Below are positions 866 to 35,069 of a stretch of 64,000 bases of DNA, piece by piece. Both the position numbers and the translations under genes were made by a program. The notes below the pieces were generated by a model. The model did not search any database. It was not told where the DNA came from and was given only the letters and a program-made list of their open reading frames with translations. Position 1 is the first letter of the stretch. Each line of letters opens with the position of its first letter. The stretch is from an uncultured Gemmatimonadales bacterium (GTDB lineage Bacteria; Gemmatimonadota; Gemmatimonadetes; Gemmatimonadales; GWC2-71-9): positions 736,001 to 800,000 of the forward strand of contig CAVUAK010000001.1 of NCBI GenBank assembly GCA_963739455.1, written 5' to 3'.

Positions 866-2270
866 CTACTCCAGCTGCCACTTGTACGCCACCTGGTACT
901 TCGGGGAACGCGCGGTCATCCAGGGCCGGACCTCGACGAGGAGTCGTTCCTCACGCGGGGCCAGGAGCAGGCTGGTGTCCCGCGCCACGCAACGTTCCTG
1001 CACATTGACACAGTCGTAGAGGGCCAGCCCGGTGATGCGGACGGGCTGCCCCGATCGGTTGCGCGCCGAGACGAGCTGACGCCTGGAACCCTTGATCCGC
1101 GCTTCATCAAGTTCGATCGGGCTCCCCATGAGCCGGACGGCGCCGGGAACGCGTGGCGCACCGGTCCAGCCCGCCATGGCCAGCGCGCGTCCCCGGGCCA
1201 GTCCCGGACCCTGCCAGAGGATGGCGCCGCCCGGCGAGGTGACCGCAATGACCACGGCCTCGAGCGCAGCGTACCCGTAGAGGGAGGTGTCAGCGCCCAC
1301 GGACCAGCGGGATTGGCGCCTGCATCCGCCAATGGTCGATGACCCACCGGCCGTCATCGAGCCGAAGGAAGCTGAGTTCACCGCCGCTGCTGGTGCGTGG
1401 CACCCAGCGGCCCAGTCCCGTGTAGCGAAAGACGAGGCTCCTGAGCTGCAACGTGCCTGCATCGAGCCAGACGGCGCCTTCCACGTCAGAGAGTGGTCCC
1501 TGCTCCGCGGGTCGGTAACTCACCCCCACGAGATTGGAGCCGGAGTCGCCGGCCAGGGCCACAAGGCAGTGGGTCTCGAGAAATGCCGGGGCGTAGAGGA
1601 CGTTGAGGTCGGGGCCGTAGTAGACGGGTGCGTCAAGCTGGTCGCGCTGGACGAAGCCGCGCGCAAGCAGCGCCTCGGCAGGCAACGCCTCGACCGGCCA
1701 GCGGGCCTTCATGTTGACCGTGACGACGCTGTCGCTGAGCAGCTGGTCGTCGGCACTGCTCCGGCTGTTCCTGCGGTCGAGCCGGTAGGAGAACGGTTCG
1801 CCGCGGTAGGAGAGGTCGGCAAGGGTGATGGCCTTCCGTGCCTCCTCCCACAGGACCGCAACCCGATCGGTGGCCGTCTGGATTGATTCGCAGCGGTCCG
1901 AGCGGGTAGCGATTTCGGGAAGCCGCACCAGCAGGTCCTCGACGACAAGTCGCAACTGCACCGTGTCACTCGCCGCACCGACGAAGGACTGCGATCGCCA
2001 TGCGCGGAACCCGATGCGGGCCACTTGCACCTGCCTCGTGCCCCCGGGCGAACCGGTCAACATGAAACTGCCACTCGTCGCCGTGATCCCGCGACCGAAC
2101 TCGTGCCCTGTGCTGTCGACCAGCGTCACGAGCGCCCCTGGCACCGGCGCCCCGGTTGCCTCGTACACGAATCCGCGTACGACCTGCGCGCTGGCCGGAT
2201 CAGCGGCGAGCAGGAAGAGAAGCAGGGCGAAGAATGAGATGCGCGTGAGCGCGCGCGCGGCGGAAGTCAT
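866..2270 (-). CDS. Secreted protein with carboxypeptidase regulatory-like N-terminal domain (frameshift near 1297)
   Basis: Signal peptide, AQVVRGFVYEATGAPVPGALVTL..ARIGF; ORF 1290..2270 continues after a +1 base into ..GADTSLYGY.. of ORF 866..1462. Confidence 0.7.
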
Positions 2271-2430
2271 GCGTGAACTGTCAGGCGCGATGTCCTTGGT
2301 GGCAAGGGAGGAACGCCCGGATGCGCCGACGGCGGCCCCGACTGGGAGCCGCCGTCTCGCTTCGCTTCGCCGGCCGCCCGAGCGCGGGCGACCGTCTTCA
2401 CTACGGGTGCAGGTTCACCGGAGTGTCAGT

Positions 2431-2553
2431 TCAGCGGGCACTCTTGTCACCGCCCAGCTGTGCCGGGAGCGGGCGGGCGAGGTATAGGGTCGGGGCTCCG
2501 GGGCCACTCAGGGGAACTGTCCGGGGCGAGCCCTGTGCTGGTGTCTGTTCCAT
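2431..2553 (-). CDS. Putative 40-aa small protein (MEQTPAQGSPRTVPLSGPGAPTLYLARPLPAQLGGDKSAR)
   Basis: GAGGAG SD 7 nt upstream of ATG; ECF-like promoter upstream; GC hairpin at about 2370-2396 downstream. Confidence 0.5.
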   Translation of the reverse strand: MEQTPAQGSPRTVPLSGPGAPTLYLARPLPAQLGGDKSAR

Positions 2554-28729: not shown

Positions 28730-29482
28730 ATGAAGATTCTTCGAGATGCCACCGTCACGCTCCTCGCCCGGCCCCAGTTCGTGGAGCCGGCACACCTGCC
28801 GATTTCCTGGCAGGGCGCGTCCACCGACGGGGAGCGGCTCGCCGAGTTCGCCGGGCGGCTCTGCTACATGAGCCAGCACAATCCCGCCGGACGGAGCACC
28901 GCCGAGTACCTCGAGAACATCCTCAAGCAGGGCCATGGGTCGGTGTTCGAGCACTCGACCTACGTGCTCCTCCTCGAGGGGATCTCCCGCTCCTGCACCC
29001 ACGAGCTGGTGCGGCACCGGGCGGGCTTCGGCTACTCGCAGCTCTCCCAGCGGTACGTGGACGAGTCGGAGGCAAACTTCGTCATGCCCCCGGCAATCCA
29101 GGGCGATGCTGTCCTCGAGGGGGAGTGGCAGCGGGCGATGGAGTCGGCCCAGACCTCCTATGTGGCGACGGTGGAGCTGCTGATGGAGAAGTACAGCTGG
29201 GTGGAGAGCCGGGTGCACCGGCGGAAGATGGCGCGCGAGGCGGCGAGGAGCGTCCTGCCCAACGGGACGGAGACGAAGATCGTGGTGAGCGCCAACGTCC
29301 GCGCCTGGCGGACGATGCTGGAGCTCCGCCTGGGAGAGGGAGCGGAGCTGGAGATCCGGCGCCTCGCGGTGATGATCCTCCGCGTGCTCAAGAGCGAAGC
29401 GCCGGCGCTCTTCGGTGACTTCGAGATCTACAAGGCGGGCGATGGGACCGAGTGCGGGCGGGTTGGATACCACAAAGTGTGA
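28730..29482 (+). CDS. thyX: FAD-dependent thymidylate synthase
   Basis: GHGSVFEH, ELVRHR..SQLSQRY, EAARSVLP, ELEIR. Confidence 0.95.
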   Translation: MKILRDATVTLLARPQFVEPAHLPISWQGASTDGERLAEFAGRLCYMSQHNPAGRSTAEYLENILKQGHGSVFEHSTYVLLLEGISRSCTHELVRHRAGFGYSQLSQRYVDESEANFVMPPAIQGDAVLEGEWQRAMESAQTSYVATVELLMEKYSWVESRVHRRKMAREAARSVLPNGTETKIVVSANVRAWRTMLELRLGEGAELEIRRLAVMILRVLKSEAPALFGDFEIYKAGDGTECGRVGYHKV

Positions 29483-29501
29483 GAAAATCCCGAAAAAACT
29501 A

Positions 29502-29530
29502 TTGTGCAATCGTTTTGCATTCCTTACCTT
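29502..29530 (+). promoter_or_regulatory. Putative sigma70 promoter TTGTGC-N17-TACCTT
   Basis: AT-rich patch with correct spacing and an A-tract upstream. Confidence 0.5.
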
Positions 29531-29570
29531 AGACTGCGCGCGCGAGAAAATCAGCAGTTCCGAGTTCGCT

Positions 29571-29595
29571 CGTCCGGCATCGGACGTCTTTTTTT
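29571..29595 (+). terminator. Intrinsic terminator / possible attenuator
   Basis: CGTCCG-GCAT-CGGACG then TC and T7; only 13 nt before the next start codon. Confidence 0.65.
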
Positions 29596-29608
29596 GTAGA
29601 GGGCCCGT

Positions 29609-30739
29609 TTGGCAGTTCGGATCGGACTAGCCTTCAATCTCAAGCCTGAGGCACCGGCACCAGTCGCCGGGGCGGACTCGCCCTCCCCCGTAATCCCCAA
29701 TCACAACAGTGACGTCACGGCGCTCCCCTCGGCGCAGCGAGTGCTGCGCGACGACCTGGAGCAGCCCGATCTCTACGCCGAGTGGGACGAGCAGGGCACC
29801 ATCGACGCGGTTGCCGCGGCGCTCTCCACCATAGGAGAAGTGGTGCTTCTCGAGGCGAACGAGAGCTTCCCGGAGAAGCTCCGTGCCGCCCGGCCCGACT
29901 TCGTGTTCAACATCGCCGAGGGGCTCTACGGCCCGAACCGGGAGGGGCACATCCCGGCCATCTGCGAGTTCTACGGCATCCCCTGTCACGCCTCCGACCC
30001 GCTCTCGCTCTCGCTCTGCCTGCACAAGGGCCGGACGAAGGAGATGCTGCTCCAGCATGGCGTGCCGACGGCGCCCTTCACCATCGCCCGCACCCGGGAT
30101 GACGCCCGGAACGTGTCGCTGCCCTTCCCGCTCTTCGCGAAGCCGTGCTTCGAGGGGTCGGGCAAGGGCGTCACGGTCAAGAGCCTCTGCCACAACCGGG
30201 CGGAGCTGGTGGCCCGGGTGGAGGCGCTGCTCGACACCTACAAGCAGCCGGTGCTGATCGAGACCTGGCTTCCGGGTCTCGAGTTCACGGTGGCGGTCAT
30301 CGGGAACGGCGAGGAGGCACGCTGCTTGCCAATCGTCGGCATGAACTTCGACGTGCTGCCCGCGGGCGCACCGCCGATCTATGGCTACGAAGCGAAGTGG
30401 CTCTGGGACACGATCGCGAATCCGCTGCAGCTGTTCGAGTGCCCGGCCAAGGTGCCGGCGGAACTGACCCGGGACATCGAAGCGGCGGCACTCGCCGCCT
30501 ACCGGGCGCTCGAGTGCCGGGACTGGTGCCGCATCGACGTGCGCTGCGACGCGGTGGGTCGCCCGATGGTGGTGGAGCTCAACCCGCTGCCGGGGATCCT
30601 TCCCGACCCGATGGACAACTCCTGCTTCCCCAAGGCGGCACGGGCAGCGGGCATGACGTACGACGACCTGATCCGCACCGTGGCGGACATCGCCTGGCGG
30701 CGGATCAGCGGCGGGTCCCTGCTGGCCGAGGTGAGCTGA
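29609..30739 (+). CDS. Ddl-like ATP-grasp ligase 1 (non-canonical)
   Basis: FNIAEG..REGHIP, FAKPCFEGSGKG, EFTVAV, YGYEAKW, CRIDVR, ELNPLPG. Confidence 0.9.
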   Translation: MAVRIGLAFNLKPEAPAPVAGADSPSPVIPNHNSDVTALPSAQRVLRDDLEQPDLYAEWDEQGTIDAVAAALSTIGEVVLLEANESFPEKLRAARPDFVFNIAEGLYGPNREGHIPAICEFYGIPCHASDPLSLSLCLHKGRTKEMLLQHGVPTAPFTIARTRDDARNVSLPFPLFAKPCFEGSGKGVTVKSLCHNRAELVARVEALLDTYKQPVLIETWLPGLEFTVAVIGNGEEARCLPIVGMNFDVLPAGAPPIYGYEAKWLWDTIANPLQLFECPAKVPAELTRDIEAAALAAYRALECRDWCRIDVRCDAVGRPMVVELNPLPGILPDPMDNSCFPKAARAAGMTYDDLIRTVADIAWRRISGGSLLAEVS

Positions 30740-31753
30740 ATGCGCGCAGTCATCCTGTACGACGGTGGAAGCGACGAGTGGTCGGCCCAGGACGTGGCCG
30801 CGGTCATGGCGAATGTGCGGGAGGTGCGGACTGCCCTCCGTCGCGCGGGTCATGAGCCGGTGCTCGTGCCAGTCCACCTGGGTGACTTCCGCTGGCTGAC
30901 GCGGGCGCGGAAGGCCGATCTCGTGTTCAACCTGTGCGAGGGGATCAACGGCAAGGCGCGCTACGAGGACTTCGTGGTGGGCGCGCTGGAGCTGACCGGG
31001 GTCCCGTTCACCGGCTGTCGTCACTGGCCGATCGCGGTGTGCCACCGGAAGTACGTCGCCAACACGCTGCTGGCCGCGGGTGGCCTGCCGGTGCCGACGT
31101 TCACGCTGGCGCAGGCGAACAAGATCCCCGCCGACTTCCCGCTGCCGGCGATCGTGAAGCCGAACGCCGAGGACGCGAGCGTCGGGATCGACCGGGATGC
31201 GGTGTGCACCACGCGCCGGGGGCTCAGGAAGCGGGTGGCCACCATGCTGGAGCACTTCGACGAGGTGCTGGTCCAGCAATACATCGGGGGCCGTGAGTTC
31301 AACGTCGGCTTCATCGGCGACCGGATGCTGCCCATCTCGGAGATCAAGTTCGACCGGATGCCCGAGGGGAGCTGGCCGATCGTCACGTACGCCGCCAAGT
31401 GGCACGCGGGGAGCGCTGAGGACATGGGGACGCAGCCGGTGTGCCCGGCACAGGCGCCATCGGAGTTGCTGCGTCGCATCGGTGCGGTGGCTCGTCAGGC
31501 ATGGATGGTCATGGCGCACGGCGAGGGATACGGCCGGGTGGACCTGCGGGTGGACGAGCAGGGTACGCCGTGGATCCTCGAGGTGAACCCCTGCCCCGAC
31601 CTGTCGAGCGATGCGGGCCTGGCGCGCATGGGTCGCGCGGCGGGATGGAACTACGACGAGCTGGTGCTCCAGGTGGTCGAGGAGACGCTCAACCGCGCCC
31701 GCCGCGCCTCGGCCGCAGCAGCAGCACAGGTGCCAAGCAGCATCCCGGCGTGA
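30740..31753 (+). CDS. Ddl-like ATP-grasp ligase 2 (non-canonical)
   Basis: FNLCEG, IVKPNAEDASVGI, GREFNV, YAAKW, GRVDLR, EVNPCPD. Confidence 0.9.
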   Translation: MRAVILYDGGSDEWSAQDVAAVMANVREVRTALRRAGHEPVLVPVHLGDFRWLTRARKADLVFNLCEGINGKARYEDFVVGALELTGVPFTGCRHWPIAVCHRKYVANTLLAAGGLPVPTFTLAQANKIPADFPLPAIVKPNAEDASVGIDRDAVCTTRRGLRKRVATMLEHFDEVLVQQYIGGREFNVGFIGDRMLPISEIKFDRMPEGSWPIVTYAAKWHAGSAEDMGTQPVCPAQAPSELLRRIGAVARQAWMVMAHGEGYGRVDLRVDEQGTPWILEVNPCPDLSSDAGLARMGRAAGWNYDELVLQVVEETLNRARRASAAAAAQVPSSIPA

Positions 31754-32247
31754 CCGTCGCCGCCGTGGTGCTGCTGCGTCCCCTGTCCACCGTGGACCGC
31801 CCGGCGGTGGAGACGATGACGCGAAACACCGGGTTCTTTCACGAAGATGAAGTGGCCATTGCCGTCGAGGTGTTCGATGCCTCAGTGGCGGGCACATCGG
31901 ACTATATGGCGCTCGGTGCCGAGGTGAATGGCGCCCTCGCCGGCTGGATCTGCTGGGGACCGACGCCCTGCACGCTCGGGACCTGGGATTGCTACTGGAT
32001 CGTGGTCGATCCCGCCCATCAGGGCGAAGGGATCGGCTCAACATTGCTTGGCGAGATGGAGCAGCGGCTTGCGGGCCGCGCGCGCCTGATCGTCGCCGAG
32101 ACGGCGGGACGCGATGAGTACGGGCCGACGCGAGCGTTCTACGAGCGCCGTGGCTATCACGCCCAGTCGCGCATTCCCGATTTCTACGCCCCGGGCGACG
32201 ATCAGGTCGTCTACGTGAAGTATCTGAGCGCCGCGGTTCGGCCTTAA
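31750..32247 (+). CDS. GNAT-family N-acetyltransferase
   Basis: YWIVVDPAHQGEGIGSTL (motif A), RAFYERRGY; GTGA overlap. Confidence 0.9.
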   Translation: MTVAAVVLLRPLSTVDRPAVETMTRNTGFFHEDEVAIAVEVFDASVAGTSDYMALGAEVNGALAGWICWGPTPCTLGTWDCYWIVVDPAHQGEGIGSTLLGEMEQRLAGRARLIVAETAGRDEYGPTRAFYERRGYHAQSRIPDFYAPGDDQVVYVKYLSAAVRP

Positions 32248-32264
32248 GGAGGACGGGTACCGGC

Positions 32265-33440
32265 ATGGAGACCTGGCAGGAGGTCCTGCGAAAGAACTCG
32301 ATCGCTTCCCTCGAAGCGCTCGCCATCAAGTTCGGCCCGGAAAACTTCCCGGAGCTGGACCGGCTGCGCATCGCGGCGGACAATTTCGAGTTCCGCATCT
32401 CGCCCGCAATGGTGGACCTCATCAAGGAGCCGAACGACCCGATCTGGCGCCAGTACGTGCCGACGGTCGACGAGCTCGATGTGGTCGATGGGATTGTCGA
32501 CTCGCTCAACGAGGACGAGGACAGCCCGGTACCGAACATCACGCACCGCTATCCCGACCGGGCGCTGTTCCTGGTGTCGCCGGTGTGTGCCTCGTACTGC
32601 CGCTTCTGCACCCGCCGGCGGAAGGTGGGGGACCCGGAGAAGATCCCGATGTCCCAGTTCGAGTCGGCGTTCCAGTACCTCGAGGAGCACACGGAAATCC
32701 GGGACGTGATCATGTCGGGCGGCGATCCGCTGCTCCTCAATGATCGCCGGCTGGACATGATCCTGACCCGGCTCCGGTCGATCAAGCACATCGAGATCAT
32801 CCGTATCGGGAGCCGGGTGCCGTGTCACCTGCCCGAGCGGATCACGCCGGAGCTGTGCGAGACGATCAAGAAGCACCACCCGGTATGGATCAACACGCAC
32901 TTCAACCACCCGGACGAGCTGACGCCGGCGGCCGTGAAGGCGCTGGGCATGCTGGCGGACGCGGGCATTCCGCTCGGCTGCCAGACGGTGCTCCTCAAGG
33001 GGGTCAATGACAGCCCCGAGGTCATGAAGTCGCTGATGCACCGGCTGATGATGGCCCGGGTGCGGCCGTACTACATCTACATGGCCGACCAGGTGGCGGG
33101 CGCCGAGCACTTCCGGACGACCGTGCAGACCGGGCTCGAGATCATGCACGCGCTTCGGGGATGGACCAGCGGCCTGGCCAACCCGTACTTCGTCATTGAC
33201 GCGCCGGGCGGCGGCGGGAAGATCCCGCTCCTGCCGGAGTACGTCGAGAGCATGAACGAGGAAGAGGTGGTGCTGCGGAACTTCCGGGGCGAGCGGTTCG
33301 TCTACCGGCAGGCGCGGGAAGAGGTGGGGGTCGGGGCGGGATCGTCCGATCCGGAGTACCTGTTCCAGCCGACGCTGCAGCTGAAGAAGTCGCCGCGGAA
33401 GAAGGCGGTGGGAGCAGCGAGGAAGCGAAAGACGGCGTGA
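32265..33440 (+). CDS. kamA: KamA-family radical SAM/PLP 2,3-aminomutase
   Basis: THRYPDR, CASYCRFC, SGGDP, THFNHP, QTVLLKGVND, RPYY, DAPGGGGK. Confidence 0.9.
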   Translation: METWQEVLRKNSIASLEALAIKFGPENFPELDRLRIAADNFEFRISPAMVDLIKEPNDPIWRQYVPTVDELDVVDGIVDSLNEDEDSPVPNITHRYPDRALFLVSPVCASYCRFCTRRRKVGDPEKIPMSQFESAFQYLEEHTEIRDVIMSGGDPLLLNDRRLDMILTRLRSIKHIEIIRIGSRVPCHLPERITPELCETIKKHHPVWINTHFNHPDELTPAAVKALGMLADAGIPLGCQTVLLKGVNDSPEVMKSLMHRLMMARVRPYYIYMADQVAGAEHFRTTVQTGLEIMHALRGWTSGLANPYFVIDAPGGGGKIPLLPEYVESMNEEEVVLRNFRGERFVYRQAREEVGVGAGSSDPEYLFQPTLQLKKSPRKKAVGAARKRKTA

Positions 33441-33477
33441 ACTGGGACGTGAAGGCGTGAGGACGTGAAGTGGACGG

Positions 33478-33511
33478 AAAGAGGGGCGGCCCGCATGGAC
33501 CGCCCCTCTTT
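33478..33511. terminator. Bidirectional intrinsic terminator
   Basis: AAAGAGGGGCGG..CCGCCCCTCTTT between convergent genes. Confidence 0.85.
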
Positions 33512-33554
33512 GTTTCCGCCTGTCAGTCACCTCACGTCCTCACGTCCTCACGCC

Positions 33555-35069
33555 CTACTGCGCAAACTTCACGATCGTCGCGTCCTTGGCCAGGTAGAGG
33601 ATCTCGAGCGCACCGTCCCGGCCGGGCACCATGGCGGCGGTGCGGGTAAGACCGATGAGGCTGTCGACAGTGCTGTAGCGCCAGCGGGGCCCGCTGGTGC
33701 AGACGCTGGAACAGGTGGCGTAGCGCAGGCGGTCGAGACCGTTGTCGAGGAAGATTGCCTGGACGCGGCCGTTCGGGTCCATGGTGACGCCGTTGCCCTT
33801 TCCAACCAATCCCGTCGTCGTGAACTCGAAGCCAGTCCAGTTGGCAACGGTGATGCACGCGCTCAGGCAGGAAGCGTACTTCACGCTGCCCAAGGCACCC
33901 GTGCCACCGAGCGCCGCGTAGTAGGTCACGAGGAGCACATTACCGGGACCGATCGCGATCGAAGGGTTCTGGCCTCCGTCGAATACGGAGACAGGGCCCA
34001 CCAGCCAGGACGCGGTGCCCACGCAGGTGACGGTACAGGTGGCGTACTTGAGGGCCCGGTTGGTGCTGTCCTGGTAGACGACATGCAGGGTGGTCCCATC
34101 GGCAACGATGGCGCTCGTCATGCCGACAAACGGCCCGGTGTCGGGGGTGCCCTGTTCCCAGTTGGCGTCCAGCGCACACAGCCCCGGGCAGCGCGCGTAC
34201 CGGAGAAAGCTGTTGATACCGTCGTAATACGTGGTGTGCACAATGCCGTCCGGCGTCACCGCGATCGACGGATTGATGCCGATCAGGCTGCTGGAGTTGT
34301 CGACGGTGGCGATGGACCAGGAGAGGAGATCGGTACAAGCGGTAGTGCACGTCGCGTACTGGAGTGTCTGCAGCCGGTCACTGCGATAGACCACGTGGAC
34401 CCTGCCCGTCCGGTCGACACCAATGGCGCTGGAAGAACCGATGTTGCCCACGGTATCCACGGCCAGGGTACGCCAATTCCCAGCGAGGGAACAGTTGCTG
34501 GCGCACTCGGCGTAGATGAAGTCGCCATTCGTCGAATCGGCATAGACCGCGTGGAGGCCGCCCGACGAATCGGCAGCGAGCGCCAGGTCCCCGAAGAAGC
34601 TGATGCCGGCCGCGGTGCCGTCGGCCAGCGGAAAGGTGACGATCGGCCGGGTCTTGAAGCTCCAGGTGAATGGCTCGGCCATGACCGACCCGCTGGTGGA
34701 CTGCAGCGAACGGGTAATGGTCGCGTTGTAGGTCATGTTGGGCAACAGCGTCGCGGTGGCCTGGAGCGTGGTGCCGCCGGGAACGAGAATGCGTCGGGAG
34801 ACGTCGACCGCGCCGGGATTCTCAGTGATGACGAAGGACGAGGTCGTGGCGGTCGAGGTGTTGAGCGGCTGGCTGGCGGTGACCGTCACGGGCAGGCCAT
34901 ACGGAGCGAGGAGCGCTCCGGCGGCCGGGGACGGATTCGAGATAACCAGCGGGGTGCCACCGCCGCCACCGCTGTCGGGCGGGGGAAGCGGCACCGGTTC
35001 ATCGCATGCGGCCAACCCGGCAAGGAGCAAGAGGGCAGCGACGCTGCGCCGGTTCCATGGTGAGCTCAT
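33555..35069 (-). CDS. Lipoprotein: Ig-like (Big_5-type) domain plus Cys-containing repeat beta-propeller
   Basis: Lipobox GLAAC; LLPNMTYNATIT..FTWSFKT; six YAxCxxxC-x5-W repeats. Confidence 0.8.
   Translation of the reverse strand: MSSPWNRRSVAALLLLAGLAACDEPVPLPPPDSGGGGGTPLVISNPSPAAGALLAPYGLPVTVTASQPLNTSTATTSSFVITENPGAVDVSRRILVPGGTTLQATATLLPNMTYNATITRSLQSTSGSVMAEPFTWSFKTRPIVTFPLADGTAAGISFFGDLALAADSSGGLHAVYADSTNGDFIYAECASNCSLAGNWRTLAVDTVGNIGSSSAIGVDRTGRVHVVYRSDRLQTLQYATCTTACTDLLSWSIATVDNSSSLIGINPSIAVTPDGIVHTTYYDGINSFLRYARCPGLCALDANWEQGTPDTGPFVGMTSAIVADGTTLHVVYQDSTNRALKYATCTVTCVGTASWLVGPVSVFDGGQNPSIAIGPGNVLLVTYYAALGGTGALGSVKYASCLSACITVANWTGFEFTTTGLVGKGNGVTMDPNGRVQAIFLDNGLDRLRYATCSSVCTSGPRWRYSTVDSLIGLTRTAAMVPGRDGALEILYLAKDATIVKFAQ

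Follow-up and report, generated by a model that had tools for sequence, protein, structure and literature searches.

A conserved Gemmatimonadales operon with two Ddl-derived ATP-grasp ligases, a GNAT and a lysine-type aminomutase: a candidate route to an N-acetylated beta-lysine amide

A stretch of 64,000 nt from an uncultured Gemmatimonadales bacterium (GWC2-71-9; GCA_963739455.1, contig CAVUAK010000001.1, positions 736,001-800,000 of the forward strand; hereafter the window) contains four adjacent genes encoding two ATP-grasp ligases (LigA and LigB), a small N-acyltransferase of the GNAT family and a KamA-family aminomutase that belongs to the radical S-adenosylmethionine (SAM)/pyridoxal phosphate (PLP) enzymes. 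The four genes are one conserved operon, here called the cassette, which fits none of the Ddl, AblA/AblB and EpmA/EpmB assignments. It is a variant within the ATP-grasp pathways that operate without a nonribosomal peptide synthetase (NRPS). We consider it probable, by a modest measure, that the cassette provides a cytoplasmic, NRPS-free route to a small N-acetylated beta-lysine amide. The pathway chemistry, the substrates of each ligase, the order of the steps and the product are what we infer from the genes.

A preliminary description of this DNA had proposed four genes coupled back to back, and the open reading frames (ORFs) and all three junctions bear this out. The TGA of ligA and the ATG of ligB abut at 30739/30740, ligB and the GNAT gene share a GTGA overlap (31750-31753), and the TAA of the GNAT gene is followed by a GGAGG 12 bases 5' of the kamA ATG. 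Conservation was assessed in 70 Gemmatimonadota loci, which comprise 10 loci of close relatives and 60 regions spread across the GNAT score range. The order ligA-ligB-GNAT-kamA holds in 58 of them, so that the synteny on which the proposal had been made to depend is conserved. Seven loci are without the aminomutase, and five are weak GNAT matches alone. The full order was also found in 41 of 81 further loci, mostly short ones and close relatives; three of these 81 have kamA first (kamA-ligA-ligB-GNAT), with LigB and the GNAT fused in two of the three. Co-occurrence was counted in 200 Gemmatimonadota genomes, among which kin are not independent; G155, which is included in some other tallies such as the EpmA count below, was left out here, and no claim depends on it. 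Of the 200, 97 carry ligA, 98 the GNAT and 85 the usual aminomutase. Every one of the 97 ligA genomes also carries the GNAT, and 84 of them carry the usual aminomutase. The cassette is mostly limited to two families, and its nearest named relatives are Gemmatimonadales metagenome-assembled genomes (LigB identity 64-96%). Its occurrence beyond the phylum is based on source names, Atlas leads and three metagenome loci. Contigs of relatives from four RNA libraries span the region, including some that run across the ligA/ligB and ligB/GNAT boundaries; as these are possibly DNA and neither strand nor a single transcript is deducible from them, we draw no support from them.

LigA and LigB are 32% identical over 271 aa, in keeping with the earlier remark that they differ strongly from each other. 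Both match Dala_Dala_lig_C and neither reaches the Ddl cut-offs of PRK01372 (243) and TIGR01205 (246), the scores being 163 and 137 for LigA and 139 and 119 for LigB. The genome's own true Ddl, a separate gene, lies above both cut-offs (320 and 283 bits). Residues were mapped on E. coli DdlB for 110 LigA, 123 LigB and 161 ligase-GNAT fusion proteins. The equivalents of K97, K144, E187, R255, D257 and N272 are retained in 98-100% of these three groups, and that of E270 in 94-100%. Judged by these retained catalytic residues, LigA and LigB look active. E15 of the GGxSxE motif is absent in both ligases and HG has become EG; E15 and H63 of DdlB are what we take to be the first D-Ala site. A glutamate replaces H63 in 100% of the LigA, 98% of the LigB and 99% of the fused proteins. 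The ATP-grasp core is thus kept and the GGxSxE and HG elements are gone, as had been described from the letters of the window. LigA itself has E104 at the H63 position and retains the equivalents of G276 and S281, the latter of which presumably binds the acceptor carboxylate in Ddl. LigB has E67 for H63, A146 for S150, D287 for G276 and A292 for S281, and also carries the change L282G.

Structure models place both proteins with Ddl. The LigA model (predicted local distance difference test, pLDDT, 90) has Ddl as its best folds (Z 31.1, root-mean-square deviation (rmsd) 2.4, 296 aligned residues), and the LigB model (pLDDT 95) matches Ddl with Z 31.8, rmsd 2.4 and 298 aligned residues. For both ligases the Ddl family gives Z 26-32 versus 21-24 for RimK/LysX. 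In a quick tree of 54 rows with three canonical Ddl, E. coli DdlA and DdlB and the genome's own Ddl form one clade (Shimodaira-Hasegawa-like approximate likelihood ratio test, SH-aLRT, 99), while LigA (93) and LigB with the fusions (93) stand outside it. A grouping with canonical Ddl, which the preliminary description had named as evidence against a new pathway, is thus seen neither in the tree nor in the profile scores. Ddl and Van enzymes are the nearest in sequence and fold and share the ATP, metal and oxyanion residues; the cassette ligases differ from them in the loss of E15 and H63, in the S150A, G276D and S281A changes of LigB and in their position outside the Ddl clade. Despite the lost D-Ala site, they are routinely named D-alanine--D-alanine ligase.

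The fold comparison also bears on the idea that the ligases decorate a macromolecule (for example a protein, lipid or envelope precursor) with beta-lysine, either on its own or in the form of a short acetylated tag. The stable chromosomal site behind thyX or thyA-folA and the conserved promoter have a housekeeping-like look that would suit such a role, no exporter recurs beside the cassette, and GNAT-linked ATP-grasp enzymes also modify proteins, according to PMC4431377. However, the folds are nearer to the small-molecule Ddl family than to RimK/LysX, and no target gene recurs beside the cassette. One candidate for such a target can be set aside: EpmA was over its cut-off in none of 201 genomes (two of 14 controls were over it), and the loop of the genome's own elongation factor EF-P reads PGNL, as it does in three of four other cassette genomes, so that EF-P is not the target of beta-lysylation. 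We regard attachment to a macromolecule as unlikely. Among six Gemmatimonadota EF-P proteins (loci L229-L234), with no EpmA found, the loop is PGNL in four and PGKG in two.

The cassette aminomutase is related to the solved Clostridium enzyme (2a5h) with E 1.6e-110 and passes the KamA-family model TIGR00238 (290 bits, cut-off 199). Equivalents of CxxxCxxC, R134, D293, D330 and the PLP lysine K337 are present in 92 of 92 orthologs, and Y290 in 87 of 92. R134, Y290, D293 and D330 are presumably the substrate residues of lysine 2,3-aminomutase (LAM). The zinc cysteines are missing, C268 being replaced by S and the C-terminal cysteines being absent. It is the only KamA found in its genome, the assembly of which is estimated to be 84% complete. 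Several other assignments were tried and rejected: glutamate and arginine 2,3-aminomutase (388 of 650 for TIGR04368 and 313 of 600 for TIGR04468) and EpmB (229 bits versus a cut-off of 369). A split between LAM and YjeK among these aminomutases is described in PMC2821294. The lysine fermentation family PF09043 had no match in five genomes, in a search in which no control was recovered either.

Further information on the substrate comes from an exchange of the aminomutase. Of the 13 cassette genomes without the usual enzyme, 11 carry a second, distant clade (about 30% identical). No genome has both clades, and just one (G094) has the second without the cassette; in three loci (L118, L119 and L215) the second-clade gene lies directly behind the GNAT gene. 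The second clade retains the radical SAM motif, R134, D293 and D330 and forms a separate group in the tree (100), joined by proteins from Streptomyces, Anaeromyxobacter and Hyalangium. The second clade is 61% identical to an aminomutase on a Streptomyces plasmid beside vioC, vioD, a carbamoyltransferase gene and stand-alone adenylation genes, a cluster that we read as streptothricin-type; streptothricin contains beta-lysine, as stated in PMC10522769. On the simplest reading, the two aminomutases yield one and the same free product, beta-lysine, and the cassette loses its own copy where another exists. The exchange thus suggests that what the cassette needs is free beta-lysine. A word search for such an exchange gave no result. 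On a plasmid of Streptomyces sp. SAT1 (L227), the cluster around a second-clade aminomutase includes a pair of ATP-grasp ligases together with a GNAT, an N-hydroxylase and a gene resembling class I tRNA ligases; this is another combination of aminomutase, ligases and GNAT, with different ligase families.

For the GNAT, the only solved homolog is PDB 2r7h (E 2e-30), an entry named "putative D-alanine N-acetyltransferase of GNAT family" that presumably stems from structural genomics of a Desulfovibrio. Eight acidic positions are retained in at least 78% of 55 aligned relatives, and such an acidic pocket would suit a cationic acceptor. Among the best 150 GNAT representatives, 49 are longer than 300 aa; 47 of these 49 have an N-terminal ATP-grasp domain, which in 41 is nearer to LigB. 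Of 7998 proteins scored in a search with a fused query, 1170 were matched at E 1e-30; for the best 120, the few source names given are Kiritimatiellae, Planctomycetota, Phycisphaerae, Ca. Brocadiaceae and Acidobacteriota. No relative was found on viral contigs. The plasmid GNAT matches H1 and H6 are without the cassette, and locus L113 shows the GNAT alone.

An aminomutase beside an acetyltransferase is the layout of AblA/AblB (PMC3543383 and PMC2821294), and the cassette could in principle be an AblA/AblB-type route to N-epsilon-acetyl-beta-lysine, with the ligases being unrelated bystanders or, given their Ddl fold, making D-Ala-D-Ala. We consider this very improbable. The GNAT was rejected as AblB (profile probability 1.3% versus Bacillus AblB; TIGR03827 unmatched in the genome in a search whose controls were recovered), its presence matches that of the ligases (97 of 97) more closely than that of the aminomutase (84 of 97), and the ligases have lost D-Ala site residues while a true Ddl is encoded elsewhere. 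The parallel drawn in the preliminary description therefore does not extend to homology, and the AblA/AblB osmolyte is an analogy only. In detail, the cassette resembles the AblA/AblB pair of methanogens and some bacteria in having a KamA-family aminomutase with a lysine-type site beside a GNAT. It differs in that its short GNAT has no more than the fold in common with the 290-aa AblB, in its two additional ligases, one of them GNAT-fused in relatives, and in an aminomutase that stays under the AblA cut-off and is without the zinc cysteines.

In the pathway that we favour, the aminomutase would, very probably, first turn L-lysine into free beta-lysine. Each ligase would then spend ATP on an acyl phosphate intermediate and convert this to an amide, giving two different amide bonds. 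LigA would couple beta-lysine to an amino acid, since the acceptor-carboxylate serine of Ddl is retained; in LigB this serine is lost and an invariant aspartate is gained, so that its acceptor would differ and be either more basic or a side-chain amine. The glutamate in place of H63 would hold the substrate amine in both. Finally, with its acidic pocket and its common fusion with LigB, the GNAT would transfer an acetyl group to a free amine on the substrate or product of LigB. The product would stay in the cell, because no hydrophobic stretch above 1.6, and thus none of membrane length, was found in any of the four proteins and no transporter or NRPS recurs among the neighbours in the 70 loci. 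The co-location of beta-lysine formation and ATP-grasp genes in the negamycin cluster provides a precedent (bioRxiv 10.1101/2025.05.27.656397).

Several points weigh against this pathway. The subsite reading of the ligases is based on a sequence alignment and on roles ascribed to Ddl residues. G034 has ligA-ligB-kamA without an adjacent GNAT (a 36% homolog is found elsewhere), and in two fragmented genomes, G033 (210 contigs) and G127 (270 contigs), the cassette is present with neither aminomutase found. The substrate of the second clade follows from its annotation as lysine 2,3-aminomutase, and since seven of the 12 second-clade genomes are of one genus, the number of exchange events is small. 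In 11 of the 12 the gene lies beside a PRK05769 class III aminotransferase gene, CoA-transferase-like genes or both, a setting that looks catabolic. The best score of the cassette aminomutase itself is for AblA (TIGR03820) with 445 bits, under the cut-off of 525, and the enzyme forms its own long-branched clade (100, stem 0.99). The last two observations make a substrate other than lysine possible.

We thus also considered the same architecture with a different aminomutase substrate, either a basic amino acid other than lysine or an intermediate that contains lysine; a different beta-amino acid would then enter the product. Besides the subthreshold AblA score and the long stem, an F replaces H131 in 92 of 92 orthologs, which would fit such a change. 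However, D293 and D330 are present in all 92, whereas position 330 is T in an enzyme with an arginine aminomutase annotation; the scores are far under the glutamate and arginine cut-offs, and the enzyme is exchangeable with a clade annotated as lysine 2,3-aminomutase. Another substrate is therefore an improbable explanation in our view.

A further alternative concerns the role of acetylation. If the real product were an unacetylated, polycationic beta-lysine amide, the GNAT could cap it for storage or self-protection, and a deacetylase could reverse this in some lineages. The acidic GNAT pocket and the displaced GNAT of G034 are compatible with this, as is a gene in locus L192 (8513-10253, on a contig of 49% GC), directly 3' of the cassette, that encodes a GNAT and a histone-deacetylase-family protein and is split in two frames. 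This gene was found in L192 only among all loci examined, and not in the genome of the window, and the tight coupling and frequent LigB fusion of the GNAT rather suit a step of the pathway. We judge the cap to be quite improbable, and retain acetylation as a pathway step.

Looking at known systems, the cassette shares with negamycin- and streptothricin-type beta-lysine clusters the combination of an aminomutase with amide-forming enzymes, including the 61% identity of the second aminomutase clade. It differs from them in having no NRPS, exporter or tailoring genes, in Ddl-derived ligases, and in a chromosomal position that is stable across roughly half of the sampled genomes. In pyrrolysine synthesis, a radical SAM lysine mutase (PylB) feeds an ATP-grasp ligase (PylC), and Ngg, of N-acetylglutaminylglutamine amide (NAGGN) synthesis, is a GNAT fused to an ATP-grasp ligase that gives an acetylated dipeptide. 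The cassette is likened to both in its working principle; the fold match of the cassette ligases to PylC is much weaker than that to Ddl (Z about 18 versus 31).

No published product or description of this four-gene set was found in a search of open-access full text, which leaves out most subscription journals; the earlier statement that no characterised product is known for this gene combination stands within that coverage. Iyer et al. 2009 is said to be a survey of ATP-grasp operons and may mention this gene set. All parts come from known families, and the surprise is limited for this reason. With the cassette present in 97 of 200 genomes and fused relatives in Planctomycetota, Kiritimatiellae and Acidobacteriota, its product may be a common metabolite that has escaped notice. 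We tentatively entertain a bolder proposal, for which we would give somewhat less than an even chance: that this is a widespread new pathway, in which two diverged Ddl-derived ligases with differing acceptor sites and a GNAT, fused or adjacent, make a new acetylated beta-lysine peptide or polyamine-like conjugate as a routine constituent of soil Gemmatimonadales and of several other phyla, drawing on any beta-lysine pool in the cell and controlled in part by a leader attenuator of a new class. If true, NRPS-free ligases that take beta-lysine would be useful catalysts for beta-amino-acid peptides. With four short soluble enzymes, the question is directly testable.

The coordinates of the genes and of the flanking elements are given in Table 1.

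Table 1. Genes of the cassette and putative control elements around it (window positions)
Feature	Position	Strand	Remarks
Sigma-70-type promoter, -35 TTGTGC, 17 bases, -10 TACCTT	29502-29530	+	comparative motif
Terminator-like hairpin and T run in the leader	29571-29597	+	between promoter and ligA start, ends 12 bases before the start
LigA, Ddl-fold ATP-grasp ligase	29609-30739	+	TTG start, 376 aa
LigB, Ddl-fold ATP-grasp ligase	30740-31753	+	337 aa; GNAT-fused in other lineages
Small GNAT N-acyltransferase, family of PDB 2r7h	31750-32247	+	GTG start, 165 aa
KamA-family radical SAM/PLP aminomutase, lysine-type site	32265-33440	+	391 aa
Long inverted repeat of heptamer units	33444-33556	.	surrounds hairpin 33478-33511, then T-rich bases; z -8.8

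The preliminary description had assigned the operon its own promoter and a terminator. A simple scan called neither a promoter on the plus strand nor a terminator on the 3' side, whereas comparison with relatives backs a promoter and, for the terminator, the hairpin within the inverted repeat. From 99 extracted upstream regions, 84 were left after a crude identity filter, and 75 of these have a counterpart of the TTGTGC-17-TACCTT motif (shuffle mean 0.65, a generous control, since these very regions had supplied the motif). The spacing is 17 in 75 of 75 cases, although 16-18 was permitted. Downstream of the promoter, 33 of the 84 regions have a leader hairpin with a T run, the stems of which vary in sequence from group to group but remain paired; in other groups the leader is short and the hairpin is absent. 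Counting any hairpin with a T run within the last 60 bases gave 37 of 84 regions versus a shuffle mean of 5.3. The leader (29483-29608) had no Rfam match at E up to 1, the folding of the whole leader was no better than that of shuffles (z 0.70), and no consensus structure emerged from an alignment of the 33 hairpins. As there is neither an Rfam match nor a consensus structure, we treat the leader hairpin, a possible attenuator, as a lead and do not claim a riboswitch. The inverted repeat is likely a two-way terminator common to the cassette and the convergent gene that is its 3' neighbour. Short tandem units resembling its heptamers also occur in other intergenic regions of relatives.

On the 5' side, the neighbour in the window is thyX (28730-29482). 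Among the 70 loci, 43 have thyX at this place and about 16 have thyA together with folA instead, a thymidylate synthase exchange at one site (seen with loci L067-L108).

Some minor observations concern related genes elsewhere. The genome of the window encodes one more Ddl-like ligase, its third such paralog (L016, G000:C1:1270651-1274220; 1465-2520, minus strand), which has the H63E exchange and falls in the LigB-like part of the tree. Behind it lie an ORF resembling a double zinc ribbon and a gene that matches Peptidase_Mx, and the region is probably another uncharacterised ligase cassette. Related single ligases are found on rhizobial and Thioflavicoccus plasmids (L194-L199), with an H63E-type site in three of four. 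Two of the four adjoin a kamA in gene settings unlike the cassette, and on these plasmids ATP-grasp genes stand next to kamA in several differing settings. No full-length class II lysyl-tRNA-synthetase-like match was found in the genome of the window, and 196 of 201 genomes have one; the gap is probably due to the incompleteness of the assembly. The catabolic-looking operons of the second aminomutase clade include an aldehyde dehydrogenase gene and resemble the kamA region of Deinococcus in content. In six loci (L208, L209, L210, L217, L235 and L237) such an operon consists of genes for a GntR-type regulator, two CoA-transferase-like subunits, the second-clade aminomutase, PRK05769 and the aldehyde dehydrogenase, and is a candidate for an aerobic route of lysine breakdown via beta-lysine.

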